In this document: in pieces, positions 19,545 through 31,072 of the stretch
Layout of the letters: each line of letters begins with the position of its first letter
Numbering within the stretch: the stretch's first letter is position 1
Source: Wolbachia endosymbiont of Drosophila innubila
GTDB lineage: Bacteria; Pseudomonadota; Alphaproteobacteria; Rickettsiales; Anaplasmataceae
Reading direction: 5' to 3'
NCBI RefSeq assembly: GCF_021378375.1
Contig: NZ_CP076228.1
Coordinates: forward strand, 90,001 to 122,000
Length of the DNA: 32,000 nucleotides
The notes under the pieces: model-generated
Databases searched by the model: none
What the model saw: the letters and a program-made list of their open reading frames with translations, nothing else
Told to the model about the DNA's origin: nothing
Translations under genes and position numbers: made by a program

Positions 19545-19895
19545 AGCAAAATGTACGAACGTTACGGGTTTAAGCAAAGACTGTGTCATTCAAGTAGCTG
19601 ACACTGGTTCCTTTATAACGGTGTCATTCCAGTGCTTGACACTGGAATCCAGGTTGCTCACAAGCAAACTAGCATAGAAAGTGGTTACAACGTTTTCGAT
19701 GAGATTGCAGAAAGGCTGGATTCCAGTGTCAAGCACTGGAATGAAAGCAGTCCTACGTCATGCCGCGATTCATTCGCGGTATCTCTAGATCCCGCTAACA
19801 AGCAGCGGGATGACGGTTGTCAGGGTGTCATCCCACTACCTTCTCCTGTCATCCCAGTGCCTCCCTCCCCTGTCATCCAAGTAGCTTGACACTTG
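19545..19895. repeat. Hairpin-repeat cluster downstream of gyrB
   Basis: A 26-bp perfect inverted pair of H4 hairpins (19625-19650 and 19718-19743). H2-like catgccgcgattcattcgcggtatctc and H3-like agatcccgctaacaagcagcgggatgacgg follow at about 19760-19815. Three roughly 23-bp tandem 'c(c)tgtcatccca' units sit at about 19816-19880. Confidence 0.85.
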
Positions 19896-25783: not shown

Positions 25784-27898
25784 TTATTCAACCAATATCT
25801 CTCTTTTCCCTGAGTAATTTGGAGCGCTGACAATACCTTCCTTTTCCATTCTTTCAACGATGTTTGCTGCTCTGTTATAGCCTATTCTAAGCTGCCTTTG
25901 AATGTAACTGGTTGAAACTTTTTGATCTCTTTGAATGATGGCTACTGCTTGGTTATAGAGGTCATTTTCTTCATCCTCCGTTTCATCGTGTGACTCTGTA
26001 GAAGAATTTTCATCTTCTTTAGTGATTTCCTCCATGTAGTTTGGCTCACCTTGCATTTTCAGATGATCAACTATATCTTGCACCTCATTATCACTTACAA
26101 ATGGGCCGTGAACTCGAATGATCTTACCACCAGAGGCCATATAGAGCATGTCACCCATGCCGAGCAATTGTTCAGCCCCTTGTTCGCCAAGTATTGTACG
26201 GCTATCTATCTTAGAAGTAACAGCAAAACTGATTCTCGTTGGAAAGTTCGCCTTTATCACACCTGTGATCACATCCACAGATGGGCGTTGTGTTGCCATT
26301 ATGATGTGTATTCCTGCAGCACGAGCCATCTGAGCTAAGCGTTGAATAGAGCACTCTATTTCTTTGCCGGCAACAAGCATCAAATCTGCCATTTCATCCA
26401 CGATCACTACAATATACGGAAATGTTTCCATCTTGATTGGTATTTTTTCAAACAGAGGTTTGCCTGTTGTTGAGTTAAAGCCAATCTGCACAACGCGCTC
26501 CAATTCTATTCCACTATTCATCGCTTCTGTGATTCTTTGGTTATAGTTTATTACATTGCGCACATTTAAATAGGACATCATGCGATAGCGATTTTCCATT
26601 TCTTTCACTATCCACTTAAGAGCGACTACAGCCTTTTTTGGCTCTGTTACCACTGGCGTTATTAGATGCGGTATTGCATCATATATTGAAAGCTCAAGCA
26701 TTTTTGGGTCGATCATTATCATCTTACATTCATCAGGACTTAATCGATAAACGAGTGAAAGAATCATAGTGTTAATCGCAACTGATTTACCAGACCCTGT
26801 GGTTCCAGCAACGAGCAAGTGGGGCATTTTAGTTAGATCTGCAATAACTGGTTTTCCACTTATTTCTTTGCCAAGCGCAATTGGGAGATTTAAGTTTGCA
26901 TTTTGGTATTCTGGGGATTCAAGCAAATCACGCAGCATTACAATTTCCCGTTCCTTGTTCGGCAACTCTATTCCCATAGCATTTTGCCCACGAATTATTG
27001 AAATACGTGCAGAGAGTGCACTCATCGAACGTGCAATGTCATCTGCAAGGCCAATTACTCTTGCAGATTTCGTGCCAGCTTGTGGTTCAAGTTTGTACAA
27101 AGTCACAACCGGCCCATAGCATACACTGATAATTTTTCCTTGCACGCCAAAATCACTCAGGACTTGTTCCAGCAGAGATAAATTTTTATTGCTCTCCATT
27201 TCATTTAGCTGTTTTCTCTGCAAAGACTCTTCTGCTTTAGAAAGTAAATGGATACTTGGAAACTTAAACTCACTTAAAACCTCCTCGGTAGCTTTTTTCT
27301 GTCTTTCTTTTGGTTGTTGTTTAGTAGTGATTTTAGTTCTATGTTTTTCTTCTACTACTAATGGTGCAATTGAATACTCAGTAGTTTTATGTGATCTGAA
27401 GAATGGAACATTTACAAATAAGCAAGCTATTTTTTTACATAAGAAGAATAGAGAGTAAATTGTTCTCTTCCAACCAACAGATCCTACAAGACCTATTGAT
27501 GTTACTATCACAAATATATAAAACGGGCAGTTATTAATTAGTGCATTCCCTATTATTCCACTGTGTCTGTACCTTGCAGTGATGCCTAGCGAAAGTTGTG
27601 GTAGTATAGCACATATCCCTAAATTGATTAATATTAAATAGAGAATTTTTAGCAGCCTTTTTGATGGCCTGAAGATCAACAAGTAAACTATGGTTGTAGC
27701 TATTGTAACACTAGTTAATCCAAGAAATTGAACCAATATATCAGCTAAATATGAACTTACTATTCCACCTAAATTTGTCACTTCCTCATTTGTAGCTGTG
27801 TTTAAGGAAGGATCTTTATAGTTATAGCTAAAAACTGATATATATATATATATTAAAAGGGATAGATATATTGCTGATTTTAGATATTTTTTTAACAT
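25784..27898 (-). CDS. ftsK: DNA translocase FtsK
   Basis: 704 aa with N-terminal TM helices, a motor domain with Walker A (GTTGSGKS) and Walker B (VVIVDEMADL), and a C-terminal gamma winged-helix domain (YNQAVAIIQRDQKVSTSYIQRQLRIGYNRAANIVERME). Confidence 0.95.
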   Translation of the reverse strand: MLKKYLKSAIYLSLLIYIYISVFSYNYKDPSLNTATNEEVTNLGGIVSSYLADILVQFLGLTSVTIATTIVYLLIFRPSKRLLKILYLILINLGICAILPQLSLGITARYRHSGIIGNALINNCPFYIFVIVTSIGLVGSVGWKRTIYSLFFLCKKIACLFVNVPFFRSHKTTEYSIAPLVVEEKHRTKITTKQQPKERQKKATEEVLSEFKFPSIHLLSKAEESLQRKQLNEMESNKNLSLLEQVLSDFGVQGKIISVCYGPVVTLYKLEPQAGTKSARVIGLADDIARSMSALSARISIIRGQNAMGIELPNKEREIVMLRDLLESPEYQNANLNLPIALGKEISGKPVIADLTKMPHLLVAGTTGSGKSVAINTMILSLVYRLSPDECKMIMIDPKMLELSIYDAIPHLITPVVTEPKKAVVALKWIVKEMENRYRMMSYLNVRNVINYNQRITEAMNSGIELERVVQIGFNSTTGKPLFEKIPIKMETFPYIVVIVDEMADLMLVAGKEIECSIQRLAQMARAAGIHIIMATQRPSVDVITGVIKANFPTRISFAVTSKIDSRTILGEQGAEQLLGMGDMLYMASGGKIIRVHGPFVSDNEVQDIVDHLKMQGEPNYMEEITKEDENSSTESHDETEDEENDLYNQAVAIIQRDQKVSTSYIQRQLRIGYNRAANIVERMEKEGIVSAPNYSGKREILVE

Positions 27899-28177
27899 CT
27901 ACCTAAAGTAGTAAGCTACTGTATATTTTACAAAGTGAATTGTTATTAGCAATATCATTATAGATAAATCTAATCCGTTGAACGGTGGTATATATCTTCT
28001 AATAATCTTTAGTGGTGGATATGTCAATTGGTTCAAGATGTGCATTATGCTACTGACAGTTTCATTATATATGTTCACCATATTAAGTTTAACCAGCCAG
28101 TTTAGGACAACCCAACATATTAGAATGAAGCTATAAAGATCAAGTAACGTATTGAGTAGATATATGATTGGATGCAT
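27899..28177 (-). CDS. yggT: YggT family membrane protein
   Basis: 92 aa with two TM segments and a YggT-like pattern (LLDLYSFILICWVVLNWL...PPL...IPPFNGLDLS). Its stop codon abuts the ftsK start with no gap. Confidence 0.75.
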   Translation of the reverse strand: MHPIIYLLNTLLDLYSFILICWVVLNWLVKLNMVNIYNETVSSIMHILNQLTYPPLKIIRRYIPPFNGLDLSIMILLITIHFVKYTVAYYFR

Positions 28178-28348
28178 ACATATCTATTACACGAAAGTTA
28201 TATAAAAGACAAGTATTTAGCCTTTTCAAACTCAAAATGTTGTTTTTGCTGAACCAAAAAAAACTTCATTTTTTGAGCTGCGCAAAGCCACCTAAAGTAG
28301 AGAATGGACAAGGAAGGAGGGGTGTATAATATATATTAATGTTGATAT

Positions 28349-28610
28349 TTATTTCTTATAAATATCATCTCTATGTCCTATCTCTATGATCTAATTGATT
28401 TACTCTGTAAATTACACGATAGTCACCAACTCTTAGCCTTCTACATCCTTTTAAGTTATGATGTAGTGGTTCACCAAAATTTATTGGGTCAACTGTAAGA
28501 CGTTCTTTTATAGCTTTTTGAACTCTTAGCCTTATTATCTTTGGAAGGTTTGGTAAATCTTTTTCAACAACACTCTTTAGAGACTTAACCTTGTAACGCT
28601 CTAATCCCAC
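28349..28610 (-). pseudogene. RelE/ParE-family toxin, cassette 1, C-terminal frameshift
   Basis: Track ORF 28371-28610 (GTG start) reads ...LPKIIRLRVQKAIKERLTVDPINFGEPLHHNLKGCRRLRVGDYRVIYRVNQLDHRDRT*. The family-typical tail IIEIGHRDDIYKK* is open in another frame (28349-28390). Confidence 0.65.
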
Positions 28611-28822
28611 TTAATATCTTCAAAATCAACTGTTTCTGCACCTTCAACATCACGCTCATCAGAAATTTTAGATACTAAAAAATCCTCCATTTCAAGCTCA
28701 ACTGCTTCTCTAAATAGTTTTCCTGCTAATTCTTGAACGGGCTGTTTAGTAAATTCAGATAATTCAGCAAGATGCTTTAAAGTTCCTTCGCTAAGAGCTA
28801 TGTTAATGCCTGAATTTGCCAT
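28601..28822 (-). CDS. Antitoxin, cassette 1 (ribbon-helix-helix-like, RelB/ParD-type)
   Basis: 73 aa from the ATG at 28822 (the track starts 4 codons earlier at TTG): MANSGINIALSEGTLKHLAELSEFTKQPVQELAGKLFREAVE... with an acidic C-terminus. It overlaps the toxin start by 10 nt. Confidence 0.8.
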   Translation of the reverse strand: MANSGINIALSEGTLKHLAELSEFTKQPVQELAGKLFREAVELEMEDFLVSKISDERDVEGAETVDFEDIKWD

Positions 28823-28846
28823 ATGTTTTACCAAAGTCCACTAATA

Positions 28847-28875
28847 ATTATACAACATTTTTTTTAATTTTTCAA
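28847..28875 (-). promoter_or_regulatory. Sigma70-type promoter of cassette 1
   Basis: On the minus strand: TTGAAA (28875-28870), a 17-nt spacer, then TATAAT (28852-28847), lying 24 nt upstream of the antitoxin ATG. Confidence 0.6.
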
Positions 28876-28905
28876 TAAAGAAAGGAGTGGTGTATAAAAA
28901 TATAT

Positions 28906-29216
28906 TTAATGTTTCAGTAGGTCCAATATTGCCTGCTTGTAAATATTGTCCCTGTGTCCTATTAAAACAATAATTACTATACGTTTTACAGTATTTACAC
29001 GGTAGACAATACGATAATCATCAGCAACTTTATTCTTCTATGTTCCTTTAATCTCTTGCGTAGCAACACACCGTTACCAATAGGATCAGTCTCAAGATAC
29101 TCTTTTATTGCATCTTTAATACTTGGCTTTACATCTTCCGGCAAGGAAGGCAAATTTCTTTTAAGAACATGCTTTAGATATTTAATGGTGTATTGCTTAT
29201 TTCCAGATGTCTTCAC
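28906..29216 (-). pseudogene. RelE/ParE-family toxin, cassette 2, internal frameshift
   Basis: Track ORF 28995-29216 (GTG start) ends ...KEHRRIKLLMIIVLSTV*. One nt back, the frame reads VADDYRIVYRVNTVKRIVIIVLIGHRDNIYKQAILDLLKH* down to 28906. The break is at aga-ata-aag/ttg (about 29025-29033). The total span of 311 nt is one short of a multiple of 3. Confidence 0.75.
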
Positions 29217-29418
29217 TATCCTCTACTTCTTCTGCATCATCAGAATTTAACTCCCTAATAATTTTGGAAAATGCAATATCTTCCGCTTCAAGTTCGATTG
29301 CTTCCTTGACTAGCTTTTCTGTTAATTTTTGAACAGACTGCTTGGTGGCTCTAGCTAGTTCAACAAGATGCTGCGAAGTTTCTGGGTTGAAAGCTACACT
29401 AACTTTTGAATTTACCAT
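29197..29418 (-). CDS. Antitoxin, cassette 2 (RHH-like)
   Basis: 73 aa from the ATG at 29418: MVNSKVSVAFNPETSQHLVELARATKQSVQKLTEKLVKEAIE... It overlaps the toxin GTG start by 20 nt. Confidence 0.8.
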   Translation of the reverse strand: MVNSKVSVAFNPETSQHLVELARATKQSVQKLTEKLVKEAIELEAEDIAFSKIIRELNSDDAEEVEDSEDIWK

Positions 29419-29447
29419 CAGTTTTACCAAAGTCTACTACTATAGCT

Positions 29448-29476
29448 ATTTTACAACATTTTTTTTAATTTTTCAA
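29448..29476 (-). promoter_or_regulatory. Sigma70-type promoter of cassette 2
   Basis: On the minus strand: TTGAAA (29476-29471), a 17-nt spacer, then TAAAAT (29453-29448). Confidence 0.55.
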
Positions 29477-29516
29477 TAAAGGAAGGAGGGCTGTATAAAA
29501 ATATATTTAATGTTTA

Positions 29517-29789
29517 TCAAGTAGCCTTCTCATAAATGGTGTCTCTATGTCCTGCTGTAGCAACAAATACCTTATGTTTTGCAATATTTACAGTATAAAT
29601 AATTCGATAATCACTAACCCTTATTCTTCTATACCCTTTTAGCCTGCCACGTAATGGTTTACCAAATTTAATTGGATCAGTTGTAAGCCGCTCGTTTATC
29701 GCTTTTGTAATCCTTGATCTTATTGTTTTTGGAAGATTTAGAAAATCTCTTTCAGTAAAGTTTTTTGAGTAGACAATATCGTATTTCAG
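29517..29789 (-). CDS. RelE/ParE-family toxin, cassette 3: full-length frame but no canonical start codon
   Basis: Absent from the ORF track. Manual translation gives LKYDIVYSKNFTERDFLNLPKTIRSRITKAINERLTTDPIKFGKPLRGRLKGYRRIRVSDYRIIYTVNIAKHKVFVATAGHRDTIYEKAT*. The frame is open from 29828 with no ATG, GTG or TTG. A CTG at 29789-29787 is preceded by GGGAGAGGA, with 6 nt between. Confidence 0.55.
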   Translation of the reverse strand: MKYDIVYSKNFTERDFLNLPKTIRSRITKAINERLTTDPIKFGKPLRGRLKGYRRIRVSDYRIIYTVNIAKHKVFVATAGHRDTIYEKAT

Positions 29790-29790
29790 T

Positions 29791-30009
29791 TTATGTCCTC
29801 TCCCTTTCAGATAGTACTGTATTCCAGTCTACATCCTCACATTCCTTAATAGTTTTATATAACGCAATATCTTCTACTTCGCACTCGATTCCTTCGATGA
29901 CTAACCTTTTTGCTAGTTCTTGAACGGATTCCTTGGTGATTTCAGCTAACTTAGTAAGGTTATGTGAAATTTTTGGGTCAAAAGTTATACTAATTCCTGA
30001 ATCTGTCAT
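29791..30009 (-). CDS. Antitoxin, cassette 3 (RHH-like)
   Basis: 72 aa from the ATG at 30009: MTDSGISITFDPKISHNLTKLAEITKESVQELAKRLVIEGIE... Its C-terminal tail (NTVLSERERT) differs from cassettes 1 and 2. Confidence 0.8.
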   Translation of the reverse strand: MTDSGISITFDPKISHNLTKLAEITKESVQELAKRLVIEGIECEVEDIALYKTIKECEDVDWNTVLSERERT

Positions 30010-30033
30010 ATGTTTTACCAAAGTCTACTAATA

Positions 30034-30062
30034 ATTATACAACATTTTTCTGAATTTTTCAA
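30034..30062 (-). promoter_or_regulatory. Sigma70-type promoter of cassette 3
   Basis: On the minus strand: TTGAAA (30062-30057), a 17-nt spacer, then TATAAT (30039-30034). Confidence 0.6.
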
Positions 30063-30209
30063 TAAAGGAAGTTGATGATATGTAAGAAAAATTTTGCCAC
30101 CTGCGTTAATAAATAATTAAAGATTTAGCATATTTATCTACCCTCTATTCTATTACTTAAGTTAGACCACTTTTTTCTATTAATATTTTTTATTTATAAA
30201 GATGAGCAG

Positions 30210-30647
30210 TTACTCATCACGCAGTTGATCTATGGATATAATACTACCGTTTGATAGTTTTTCAGTACATTTTTCACTTTTGTATTCTTTATCAGAGTCG
30301 ATACTGATTTTGTCAAATATTAAAACATCTCCTGAAATTTTATCACGAAACTCACTAATAGCAAAAAACGGTATAGTAATTCGCTCTTGTTTTCCTTGAA
30401 AACTCAAACTGACGCTAAATTTATCCTCAGAAACTTTTAAATCATAGAATTGATGCTGTAATATAATAAGCATTTGAGTAGGGTATGACTTTTTCAAACG
30501 ATCTGGCATGGTCACACCATTAAAATATGTGAAAAATAATATTTCTAAGTGAGGGATAAAACCATTACCTGATATAACATCTAAAGTCTTTTTGATAACT
30601 TGAAACTTAGCAGAATTAAGCAGTTTTTTGTAATCTGTTTGCTCCAT
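30210..30647 (-). CDS. sspB: ClpXP adaptor SspB (alphaproteobacterial type, stringent starvation protein B family)
   Basis: 145 aa. HLEILFFTYFNGVTMPDRLKKSYPTQMLIILQHQFYDLKVSEDKFSVSLSFQGKQERITIPFFAISEF follows the SspB-alpha core pattern (H..I.F.T...GV..P..L...YP..M.I.LQHQ..DL.V....F.V.L.F.G....L.IP..A...F). Confidence 0.75.
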   Translation of the reverse strand: MEQTDYKKLLNSAKFQVIKKTLDVISGNGFIPHLEILFFTYFNGVTMPDRLKKSYPTQMLIILQHQFYDLKVSEDKFSVSLSFQGKQERITIPFFAISEFRDKISGDVLIFDKISIDSDKEYKSEKCTEKLSNGSIISIDQLRDE

Positions 30648-30671
30648 ATAACTTTCACATACGTAAATTTT

Positions 30672-30958
30672 GGGGAACTTCTGTTACCCGGCGTTCCCTG
30701 AACCGTGCTTATAGCAATGAAGTTATAGTGCTTAAATTAAGCAGCTATTGCGTCGACATTGTCTTCAGCAGCAAAATTATCGTTTGCATTTAAATTATGA
30801 ACTCTTAGCGGTGGTGTCTAACCGAGCAAAGCTACCATCTTTACTATGCATGTCGATTCTTATTCGTCCCCATATAAATTAAAAAACATGGTGGAGACGC
30901 CGAGTACTGCCCTCGAGTCCAATACACCTATTACAAGGTAATTTTATTGCTATAGTAC
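30672..30958 (-). ncRNA. ssrA: Two-piece (circularly permuted) tmRNA
   Basis: The acceptor piece ends ...tcgagggcagtactcggCGTCTCCACCA (CCA 3' end at 30889). After a 17-nt spacer, the coding piece begins GGGGACG (30871-30865), which pairs with CGTCTCC and includes the G3:U wobble. The tag reading frame 30787-30737 is gca aac gat aat ttt gct gct gaa gac aat gtc gac gca ata gct gct taa, giving ANDNFAAEDNVDAIAA*. A closing helix pairs tatagcaat with attgctata (30946-30954 and 30710-30718). There is a 3' hairpin at 30673-30698. Confidence 0.88.
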
Positions 30959-30975
30959 ACAAAATGTACATAGCT

Positions 30976-31004
30976 ATTATATAGCAACATTAAATAAATG
31001 TCAA
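30976..31004 (-). promoter_or_regulatory. Consensus sigma70 promoter of ssrA
   Basis: On the minus strand: TTGACA (31004-30999), a 17-nt spacer, then TATAAT (30981-30976). Both hexamers match the consensus exactly, about 20 nt upstream of the tmRNA precursor. Confidence 0.65.
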
Positions 31005-31072
31005 GATATTATGACCTTAAGTTGATTTATTGCTAAAACAAAATTAATATTTCCAGTAAAAAATTCTGTGCT

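Follow-up and report, generated by a model that had tools for sequence, protein, structure and literature searches.

The sspB-yggT site of this supergroup-A-like Wolbachia is a hot spot at which type II toxin-antitoxin cassettes of the RelB/RelE type form a chromosomal array that varies between strains. In the window, which is the whole 32,000-nt stretch of DNA analysed, the array lies on the minus strand and consists of three head-to-tail RelB(RHH-like)/RelE cassettes in units of ~ 590 bp, flanked by sspB and by yggT/ftsK (Table 1). Taken as a whole, the evidence makes it probable that cassette 3 is kept and that cassettes 1 and 2 are undergoing a near-neutral, toxin-first loss.

Table 1. Features of the cassette array and of its flanks, in window coordinates.
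Feature	Position	Strand	Basis
Promoter-like site, cassette 3, TTGAAA-17-TATAAT	30034..30062	-	sigma-70-like match
Antitoxin 3, 72 aa, intact	29791..30009	-	ORF
Toxin 3, 90 codons, intact RelE-family ORF	29517..29789	-	ParE_toxin and RelE_StbE matches
Promoter-like site, cassette 2, TTGAAA-17-TAAAAT	29448..29476	-	sigma-70-like match
Antitoxin 2, 73 aa, intact	29197..29418	-	ORF
Toxin 2, GTG start, frameshifted; native 73 aa, repaired 103 aa	28906..29216	-	frame comparison
Promoter-like site, cassette 1, TTGAAA-17-TATAAT	28847..28875	-	sigma-70-like match
Antitoxin 1, 73 aa, intact	28601..28822	-	ORF
Toxin 1 pseudogene, GTG start, 14-nt deletion; native 79 aa	28349..28610	-	frame and allele comparison
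Unit-end motif, minus-strand TTATACACCCCTCCTTCCTT	28310..28329	-	repeat family; also closes cassettes 2 and 3
sspB, upstream flank of the array	30210..30647	-	Pfam SspB on the identical L001 gene
yggT, downstream flank of the array	27899..28177	-	
ftsK, next after yggT	25784..27898		

Organisation of the array

A repeat search gave start-to-start spacings of 596 and 591 nt for the direct-repeat units, and ~ 600 columns were alignable among the three units using MAFFT. The array escaped Tandem Repeats Finder, since the units are only 63-72% identical. In each cassette a small antitoxin gene precedes a co-oriented toxin gene behind one promoter-like site, which is the layout of a type II toxin-antitoxin operon; the two genes share 10 nt in cassette 1 and 20 nt in cassette 2, and a 1-nt gap separates them in cassette 3. 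The three best sigma-70-like matches of the region are exactly the promoter-like sites of the three cassettes. The three tandem cassettes with their own promoters and 72-73 aa antitoxins, as described in a previous sequence-only reading, were thus recovered by the repeat search, the alignment, the promoter scan and the ORFs. The proteins of the three cassettes are 36-55% identical to one another, and the cassettes are old paralogues.

Family membership of the toxins and antitoxins

On PF05016 (ParE_toxin, cut-off 23), toxin 3 scored 32.0 bits (E-value 1.9e-7), repaired toxin 2 30.2 bits and repaired toxin 1 38.5 bits. On TIGR02385 (RelE_StbE, cut-off 27.9), toxin 3 scored 36.7 bits (E-value 4.5e-9) and repaired toxin 1 36.8 bits, repaired toxin 2 falling just under the cut-off with 26.9 bits. 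The RelE/ParE-type identity first proposed for the toxins is borne out by these above-cut-off Pfam and NCBIfam matches. Furthermore, against solved structures the toxin-family profile matched Rv2866 (3g5o) with an E-value of 2.9e-14, RelE (9g12) with 4.6e-13 and E. coli RelE (4v7k, 4fxe) with 3e-5 to 1e-4. From these profile comparisons the toxins are assigned to the RelE family (RelE/StbE subfamily), paired with small upstream antitoxins.

In an alignment of 27 family members (A2), R85 and Y89 show no variation and K54, R57, R58, R60 and H84 hardly any; toxin 3 carries all of these residues. By analogy with E. coli RelE, the conserved C-terminal Arg and Tyr would have a catalytic role. R85 and Y89 are missing from the predicted native products of both toxin 1 and toxin 2, in agreement with the claim that both have lost the conserved C-terminal Arg/Tyr.

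For the antitoxins, no match above threshold to curated RHH or RelB models was found in Pfam and NCBIfam, and antitoxin 1 gave no match to these models whatever. The best sub-threshold matches were to DUF6290 (E-value 0.008, 16.8 bits for a cut-off of 27), to Antitox_RHH (E-value 0.022) and to the NCBIfam RelB model (E-value 0.009, 16.3 bits for a cut-off of 50). Among 30 antitoxin homologues all matches were weak, to DUF6290 in seven, to RHH_1 in four and to RHH_5 in three, and the antitoxin profile had no significant match in the PDB. An AlphaFold2 model of the monomer (pLDDT 70.9) displays an extended segment at residues 1-11 followed by helices at 12-25 and 29-56. The top Foldseek matches of this model are almost all RHH proteins, including the CopA_SO antitoxin (6iya; rmsd 1.2 A over 40 columns), MatP, AtaR, Arc, PutA, TacA and CopG, none with an E-value < 0.1. 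The RHH label given to the antitoxins at first reaches no curated-model threshold, and the top Foldseek matches, mostly RHH proteins, do not go below an E-value of 0.1.

Lesions in toxins 1 and 2

The frame of toxin 1 is lost between 28386 and 28385, at the junction of a 14-nt deletion, and the conserved tail IIEIGHRDDIYKK (IGHRDDIYKK) lies out of frame, open in another frame down to 28349. The deletion is common to the window and to L002 and L003, which are independent Logan read-set assemblies, and is absent from wKgib (L001) and L029, both carrying an intact 91-aa allele. Toxin 1 is a real pseudogene adjoining an intact antitoxin, and its loss of frame before the conserved tail, already seen in the window, is confirmed by these alleles.

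Independent lesions of toxin 1 are found elsewhere, as +1T in wUni, -1G in L034 and +1T in L042, and L027 and L038-41 have an element inserted into the gene; antitoxin 1 is intact beside every one of these broken alleles. Related strains thus show at least four further independent knock-outs of toxin 1. Of the five independent lesions, three came from a targeted retrieval of truncated homologues, which biases their frequency upward; among loci fetched for other reasons, a toxin 1 lesion is present in three of five lineages. Given these repeated independent knock-outs next to an always intact antitoxin, toxin-first erosion is real for cassette 1.

In toxin 2 the AAA run 29031-29029 is where the frame is lost, and an adjacent frame stays open through the entire C-terminal half, down to 28906. 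This run is A3 in the window only and AAAA in every other assembly, a 1-nt deletion relative to L001-3, L034 and L038-41. Indeed, L002, a 4,556-bp contig from the same strain, is identical to the window bar this one base. The comparison points to a frameshift that arose very recently or else to an error of the assembly; the lesion ascribed to toxin 2 stands as a loss of frame in the window but not as a fixed one.

The one-base homopolymer difference (A3 vs A4), together with the A4 seen in both independent assemblies of the deletion-bearing lineage, is what one would expect if the lesions came from errors of sequencing or assembly, with the three toxins intact in the organism. However, the same two assemblies reproduce the 14-nt deletion of toxin 1, and only three indels occur over the 7.4 kb shared with wKgib, none of them in housekeeping genes. 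Moreover, no interruption is seen in the window's long ORFs (PutA 1046 aa, aconitase 861 aa, GyrB 809 aa, FtsK 704 aa), so that the assembly is not error-ridden, and we consider a general artefact very unlikely.

Recoding could also be envisaged, with all three toxins still made and a truncated toxin 1 that is partly active. A -1 slip of tRNA-Lys on A_AAG (ATA AAG, 29034-29029) would restore the ...RRIKVADDYR... of toxin 2 exactly, but the site is the ancestral A4 run minus one base and not a conserved slippery motif, and the native toxin 1 product lacks V77, H84, R85 and Y89, all invariant or nearly so in the 27 family members. Such a rescue would be extremely improbable.

The 14-nt deletion might also have been left behind on excision of the element found within toxin 1 in sister strains, but this origin was judged less parsimonious. 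This element is absent from the window, which shares SNPs with wKgib, and wKgib carries neither insertion nor deletion in toxin 1.

Toxin 3 and its CTG start

Toxin 3 is uninterrupted and displays no ATG, GTG or TTG after an in-frame TAG at 29831-29829. A CTG at 29789-29787 is positioned one nt past the antitoxin stop (TAA at 29793-29791) and six nt downstream of a GAGGA. The same CTG, with no canonical start, is found at the toxin 3 start codon in 11 of the 11 orthologues examined, among them wCle (L023; GenBank: Wolbachia of Cimex lectularius), in which the cassette is at a different chromosomal site. The omega of toxin 3 is 0.15-0.25, corresponding to purifying selection, and its recent changes are three synonymous and no nonsynonymous ones. 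These comparisons indicate that toxin 3 is whole and under selective constraint and that its CTG start is ancestral, not a lesion. The statement of the sequence-only reading that every toxin has a different lesion does not hold for this undamaged toxin, and a pseudogene formed by loss of an ancestral start is ruled out by the CTG of all 11 orthologues and by the purifying selection.

Cassette 3 would be a working module that selection maintains. Translation of its toxin most likely starts weakly at the conserved CTG near GAGGA, and weak initiation of this kind would hold the amount of toxin far under that of the antitoxin. A fusion of antitoxin 3 to toxin 3 by +1 frameshifting was also considered and dropped, no evidence supporting it. 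The 11 CTG-start orthologues come from several divergent Wolbachia lineages.

Variation of the site among strains

The sspB-yggT site is empty in many Wolbachia. One cassette is found in L007, L008, L024, L029 and L049, two in L027 and wUni, both without cassette 2, and three in wKgib and L038-40, while four or more are carried by L042 on a contig without sspB and yggT. A genome scan with SspB, used for site occupancy only, gave 19 loci, among which the species cluster of the window was not represented. In a metagenome scan the 27-sequence toxin alignment proved too diverse, and a narrower alignment gave seven loci, too few for an unbiased census.

Whether each lesion is fixed or strain-specific had been left to a comparison of orthologous loci, and the outcome differs with the toxin: the toxin 1 deletion is shared by L002 and L003, the toxin 2 change is found in the window only and the toxin 3 start is fixed. 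In the sister strains, the insertion point of the element interrupting toxin 1 falls within the 14 nt deleted from toxin 1 here.

Selection on the antitoxins and order of erosion

The antitoxin ORFs are whole beside the broken toxins, as was first observed, and for toxin 1 related strains have independently come to show this asymmetry too. Across the 13 related loci scored (about nine lineages), antitoxin 1 is always intact; zero disruptions in 13 loci is also the expected outcome of selection for retention. In the close clade, pairwise dN/dS was uninformative (dS = 0) and counts of segregating sites were used instead. Recent nonsynonymous:synonymous changes are 3:0 in antitoxin 1, 5:0 in antitoxin 2, 4:1 in toxin 1 and 8:3 in toxin 2, and 1:4 in the whole of cassette 3. 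The 8:0 of antitoxins 1 and 2 taken together has a P of about 6e-4 under a long-term omega of ~ 0.17, and Fisher's exact test gives p = 0.007 for antitoxins 1+2 vs cassette 3 and p = 0.013 for cassettes 1+2 vs cassette 3, from counts that are small (8:0, 1:4) and from segregating sites counted without a tree. In other supergroups, the orthologues of antitoxin 3 are 83-92% identical with an omega of 0.1-0.3. The 8:0 changes fit drift and carry no sign of preservation; the proposal that the antitoxins of cassettes 1 and 2 are kept finds no support in these eight nonsynonymous substitutions out of eight.

In the explanation that we favour, cassettes 1 and 2 would evolve close to neutrally and be lost toxin-first. 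A mutation inactivating the toxin would be tolerated or even favoured and one inactivating the antitoxin would be lethal while the toxin works, so that the first hit would always fall on the toxin, and the antitoxins would be undecayed because little time has elapsed since toxin loss. Whole antitoxins would then need no newly acquired role.

Alternatively, antitoxins and promoters could be actively retained after toxin loss, as anti-addiction or cross-neutralising factors against a plasmid, phage WO or neighbouring RelE, or as repurposed RHH regulators. An antitoxin 1 intact beside five independently broken toxin 1 alleles is consistent with retention, and the same RelBE family, found on pWCP-like contigs and on pWALBA1/2, is an addiction module of Wolbachia plasmids (PMC9560607). 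Furthermore, a promoter/5'UTR block of ~ 65 nt, with the cassette 3 promoter-like site inside it, is conserved family-wide, and promoter identity among the three cassettes, whose 5'UTRs are nearly identical as well, is 87-96% compared to ~ 60-70% in the coding parts, which makes cross-regulation conceivable. This near-identity of the promoters needs selection or gene conversion, pure drift being no explanation. No Rfam match was obtained in 27800-30400 at E-values up to 1; hence the conserved inter-unit block contains no known RNA element.

Besides the substitution counts, the age of the lesions speaks against retention. Indeed, they are very young, the strains differing by at most 1% and sister strains having intact toxins, so that intactness of the antitoxins carries little information. 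Moreover, the deletion of whole cassettes elsewhere (cassette 2 in L027 and wUni, and the many empty sites) argues that the antitoxins are dispensable. We therefore regard active retention as unlikely and prefer a near-neutral, toxin-first loss of cassettes 1 and 2.

Relation to known systems

As in RelBE modules (E. coli RelBE; M. tuberculosis RelFG, Rv2865/Rv2866), the antitoxin lies upstream of a toxin of ~ 90 aa that it overlaps or abuts, the toxin profile matches Rv2866, E. coli RelE (4v7j, 4fxe) and archaeal RelE, and the Wolbachia toxins retain the basic residues as well as the C-terminal R...Y. Unlike in these modules, the antitoxins here are below every curated RelB/RHH threshold, toxin 3 has no canonical start and three cassettes are arrayed behind near-identical promoters.

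According to PMC9560607 and PMC9894559, and to Fallon 2020 (cited through PMC8741817 and PMC9560607), Wolbachia RelB/E modules are known from plasmids pWCP and pWALBA1/2, phage WO and chromosomal islands, with many chromosomal copies, transfers between plasmid, phage and chromosome and heavy pseudogenisation already reported. The present locus is an otherwise ordinary decaying toxin-antitoxin locus, of a family already catalogued in Wolbachia. In contrast to plasmid and phage RelB/E, the array is chromosomal, outside prophage and at the fixed sspB-yggT site; a site-specific array, a subfamily-wide CTG start and repeated toxin knock-outs are not described in PMC8741817, PMC9560607 and PMC9894559.

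Toxin 1 and antitoxin 1 share ~ 74% and ~ 70% identity, respectively, with the toxin and the antitoxin of pWCP (pair P0036/P0076), and the pWALBA1 toxin is 59% identical. A further reading, doubtful when its two parts are taken jointly, is that the conserved CTG abutting the antitoxin stop may be a built-in attenuator fixing a very low toxin:antitoxin translation ratio, and that loss of toxin 1 may have been favoured, antitoxin 1 being kept as immunity against a plasmid RelBE such as that of pWCP. The same family occurs on Wolbachia plasmids, and the locus might serve to test for a possible protection by chromosomal antitoxins against plasmid addiction.

Among free-living bacteria, for instance in a population survey of Klebsiella pneumoniae, antitoxins persist beside missing or disrupted toxins, for which a degrading locus, anti-addiction and a new regulatory role were offered as explanations (PMC7192599). 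Unlike for those orphan antitoxins, decay here is datable to within-strain divergence, and the polymorphism favours drift over retention. The locus represents a small, datable case of toxin-first erosion of an addiction module in an obligate endosymbiont.

Since a canonical start is lacking, genes of the toxin 3 type are annotated inconsistently in public genomes (101, 97, 90, 86 or 56 aa) or missed. Because of such mis-calls, surveys of Wolbachia RelE are expected to under-count toxins and to over-count "orphan" antitoxins. The start given by PGAP to the toxin 3-type gene differs by genome, being ATA, CTG, CTG or ATT.

Layout of the array

The window has a G+C content of 34.6% (whole 32 kb) and its proteins match almost exclusively Wolbachia. 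On the minus strand the order of genes is tmRNA, sspB, three antitoxin-toxin cassettes (numbered 3, 2 and 1 from sspB), yggT and ftsK. A repeat search found a direct repeat in three copies at spacings of 596 and 591 nt, and the three units can be aligned across ~600 columns, which bears out the three tandem ~590-bp units proposed in the sequence-only reading. Every unit holds a sigma-70-like site, an antitoxin ORF, a RelE-type frame and a common end motif (repeat family D6). The promoter claimed for each unit was also found, as sequence, with two copies of TTGAAA-17-TATAAT and a single TTGAAA-17-TAAAAT; they rank as the top three matches in a region whose total of sigma-70-like matches is not above that of shuffles. 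All three antitoxin ORFs are indeed intact, with an ATG start and 72-73 aa.

Features of the array and of the rest of the window, with nonsynonymous:synonymous differences within the close clade
Feature	Position	Strand	Differences	Remark
tmRNA gene	30669-31008	-		two-piece alphaproteobacterial; RF01849, 233.7 bits
sspB	30210-30647	-		directly downstream of tmRNA
Antitoxin 3	29791-30009	-	1:1	
Toxin 3	29517-29789	-	0:3	
Antitoxin 2	29197-29418	-	5:0	
Toxin 2	28906-29216	-	8:3	
Antitoxin 1	28601-28822	-	3:0	
Toxin 1	28349-28610	-	4:1	
-10 hexamer to TAGTAGACTTTGG	28847-28860, 29448-29470, 30034-30047	-		
yggT	27899-28177	-		after the three cassettes
ftsK	25784-27898	-		after yggT
ATG-TAG pair	29834-29829	-		toxin 3 frame
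ORF, 193 aa	21453-22034	-		
ORF, 230 aa	22100-22792	-		
WsnRNA46 match	19603-19763	+		RF02625, 74.8 bits (gathering score 65.3)

The three cassettes are paralogues of old standing, with 36-49% identity among the antitoxins and 44-55% among the toxins; identity in the promoter and 5'UTR block, by contrast, reaches 87-96%, compared to roughly 60-70% in the coding parts. This block of ~65 nt lies upstream of every family member fetched, including a copy at another chromosomal site of wCle (Wolbachia of Cimex lectularius). The sequence between the -10 hexamer and the conserved TAGTAGACTTTGG varies among cassettes: the palindrome ATAATTAT is found there in cassettes 1 and 3, and in cassette 2 a 5-nt insertion creates ATAGCTAT. 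Operator specificity may be located in this variable segment.

The array follows sspB, which encodes the adaptor for ssrA-tagged proteins. Non-stop mRNAs from RelE-type cleavage are rescued by tmRNA; the juxtaposition of tmRNA, sspB and the RelE array may well be due to chance.

Family assignment

The proposed RelE/ParE nature of the toxins held up. Toxin 3 and, with their reading frames restored, toxins 1 and 2 all exceed the cut-off of Pfam ParE_toxin (PF05016); NCBIfam RelE_StbE (TIGR02385) is passed by toxin 3 and repaired toxin 1, with repaired toxin 2 just below. When a profile built from an alignment of 27 family members was searched against solved structures, it matched Rv2866 (3g5o, E 2.9e-14), RelE (9g12, 4.6e-13) and also E. 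coli RelE. The alignment shows no variation at R85 and Y89, which belong to the C-terminal GHRxxIY motif. The RHH class of the antitoxins was less firmly recovered. Every match to the DUF6290, Antitox_RHH, RelB, RHH_1 and RHH_5 models is sub-threshold and the antitoxin profile gave nothing significant in the PDB. An AlphaFold2 model (pLDDT 70.9) predicts an extended N-terminus followed by two helices, and its Foldseek neighbours are RHH proteins nearly throughout, none of them significant. RHH identity is hence likely, short of proof.

Published work reports a wide spread of RelB/E modules over the chromosomes, WO prophages and plasmids of Wolbachia, with transfers between these replicons and heavy pseudogenisation (PMC9560607; PMC9894559; Fallon 2020, as related in PMC8741817 and PMC9560607). 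The window cassettes are of one family with the pWCP-type pair and the pWALBA1/2 modules. Small contigs (2.8-8.3 kb; L043-L048) of Culex-associated samples bear a cassette closely related to cassette 1 (antitoxin ~70%, toxin ~74% identical), adjoining a DnaB_C gene and a transposase of the IS110 type; the Wolbachia plasmid pWCP is described with this arrangement (PMC9560607). What the present locus adds to this background is modest: one subfamily has a conserved CTG start, toxin 1 was knocked out repeatedly and independently, and the site varies in a cassette-like manner.

Toxin lesions among strains

Toxin 1 does lose its frame before the conserved tail. In wKgib (L001, GCA_016031645.1; strain name from PMC7691483), 99.6% identical to the window across 7.4 kb, it is intact, with 91 aa and the C-terminal end ...NQLDHIVTITEIGHRDDIYKK. 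The window lacks 14 nt of it (ATAGTAACTATCAC; junction between 28386 and 28385), a deletion also present in two independent Logan assemblies, L002 (SRR10988568) and L003 (SRR10988559); the lesion is real. The resulting 79-aa product is missing V77, R85 and Y89, which are invariant, as well as H84, which is nearly so. Among the loci compared, toxin 1 was inactivated in at least five independent events: the 14-nt deletion in the window lineage, +1 T in wUni (L037), -1 G in L034, +1 T in L042, and an insertion after codon 77 in L027 and L038-41, either a ~100-bp inverted-end element or full IS630-family copies. Antitoxin 1 is intact at all of these loci. This frequency is inflated because three of the five lesions came from deliberate fetching of truncated homologues; in lineages fetched for other reasons toxin 1 is damaged in 3 of 5, and toxin 1-type homologues in the protein database are for the most part full length. 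The loci compared for toxin 1 show an intact toxin 3 in 10/10 and an intact toxin 2 in 7/8.

In these sister strains the inserted sequence (L039 3232-3332; L038 3294-4153; L040 3502-5582; L027 from 1074) has its insertion point inside the 14 nt deleted from the window. The full copies carry HTH_Tnp_IS630 and DDE_3; the element was sought in the window and is absent.

The toxin 2 frameshift is present in the window but in no other assembly compared: positions 29031-29029 read AAA, compared to AAAA in L001, L002, L003, L034 and L038-41, and this single base is the only difference in 4,556 bp from L002. Since all compared assemblies have AAAA and L002 is otherwise identical, the change is a private mutation of very recent date or else an error. 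The window is otherwise clean (only three indels from wKgib in 7.4 kb, long ORFs uninterrupted), so neither option is favoured.

For toxin 3, no ATG, GTG or TTG follows the in-frame TAG (29831-29829), as had been noticed, but this is not a lesion. The codon aligned to the M of 'MKYDIV' is CTG (29789-29787) in 11 of the 11 orthologues examined (window, wKgib, L027, wUni, L038, L039, L040, wCle (L023), L024, L025 and L049), one nt past the antitoxin stop and six nt past a conserved GAGGA. Omega is 0.15-0.25 across the strains compared, and within the close clade all three differences are synonymous. Toxin 3 is thus, as judged from its conservation, a gene under selection with a non-canonical start and not a decayed one; with the toxin 2 change private to the window and perhaps an error, the claim that every toxin has a different lesion fails.

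PGAP places the toxin 3 start, depending on the genome, at ATA (101 aa), an upstream CTG (97 or 102 aa), the conserved CTG (90-96 aa) or ATT (86 aa). L049 comes from the Wolbachia of a spider, Oedothorax gibbosus; its toxin 3 (2406-2671) lacks seven codons in frame (RSRITKA) but again has the CTG start, and the public annotation is a 56-aa fragment alone. A minimal ATG-TAG start-stop lies 39 nt upstream of the CTG, within the 3' part of antitoxin 3.

Selection and site occupancy

Over long distances antitoxins and toxins both look constrained, with omega at 0.1-0.3 for antitoxin 3 and, against L042, 0.16-0.18 for antitoxin 1 and 0.16 for toxin 1 (L042 copy repaired). Within the close clade, where the small numbers of differences were counted without a tree, all eight changes in antitoxins 1 and 2 are nonsynonymous, which fits neutrality (P = 0.16), is very unlikely under omega 0.17 (P about 6e-4) and differs from cassette 3 (Fisher p = 0.007). 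The idea that these two antitoxins are being kept finds no support in the counts; both would be neutral, and the contrast suggests drift of cassettes 1 and 2 as wholes and maintenance of cassette 3.

Many Wolbachia (L006, L010, L011, L013, L019 and L020) have an empty sspB-yggT spacer of ~145 nt. It holds one cassette in L007, L008, L024, L029 and L049; L027 and wUni have two there, of types 3 and 1, and the window, wKgib and L038-40 have three. The L042 contig, from another strain, has at least four, with neither sspB nor yggT on it. The junction in L027 is of the kind expected if the inter-unit repeats, 94% identical, had recombined. In filarial-nematode strains (L012 6436-6662, L015 6436-6666) the spacer has no cassette and a scar resembling the unit 3' end plus the right flank, which suggests an old cassette deletion.

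In the best explanation, a variable array is losing two of its three RelBE cassettes by ordinary erosion, toxins first, and the remaining cassette would be functional. Toxin 3 would be translated from its conserved weak CTG, with CTG initiation and coupling presumed. An antitoxin could not be lost before its toxin, which would force the order of loss; intact antitoxins beside dead toxins need no new function because the antitoxin cannot go first. The asymmetric decay of the sequence-only reading thus stands for cassette 1 and, unless the toxin 2 frameshift is an error, for cassette 2, but not for cassette 3, and a new antitoxin role is unneeded. For orphan antitoxins of Klebsiella, anti-addiction and repurposing have been hypothesised (PMC7192599). 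That the loss of toxin 1 is adaptive, antitoxin 1 giving anti-plasmid immunity and the CTG controlling dose, appears improbable as a joint reading beside toxin-first erosion.

Elsewhere in the window, a match to Wolbachia sRNA 46 lies just downstream of gyrB, and a pair of neighbouring ORFs (193 and 230 aa) in different frames look by eye like the halves of a split transposase.
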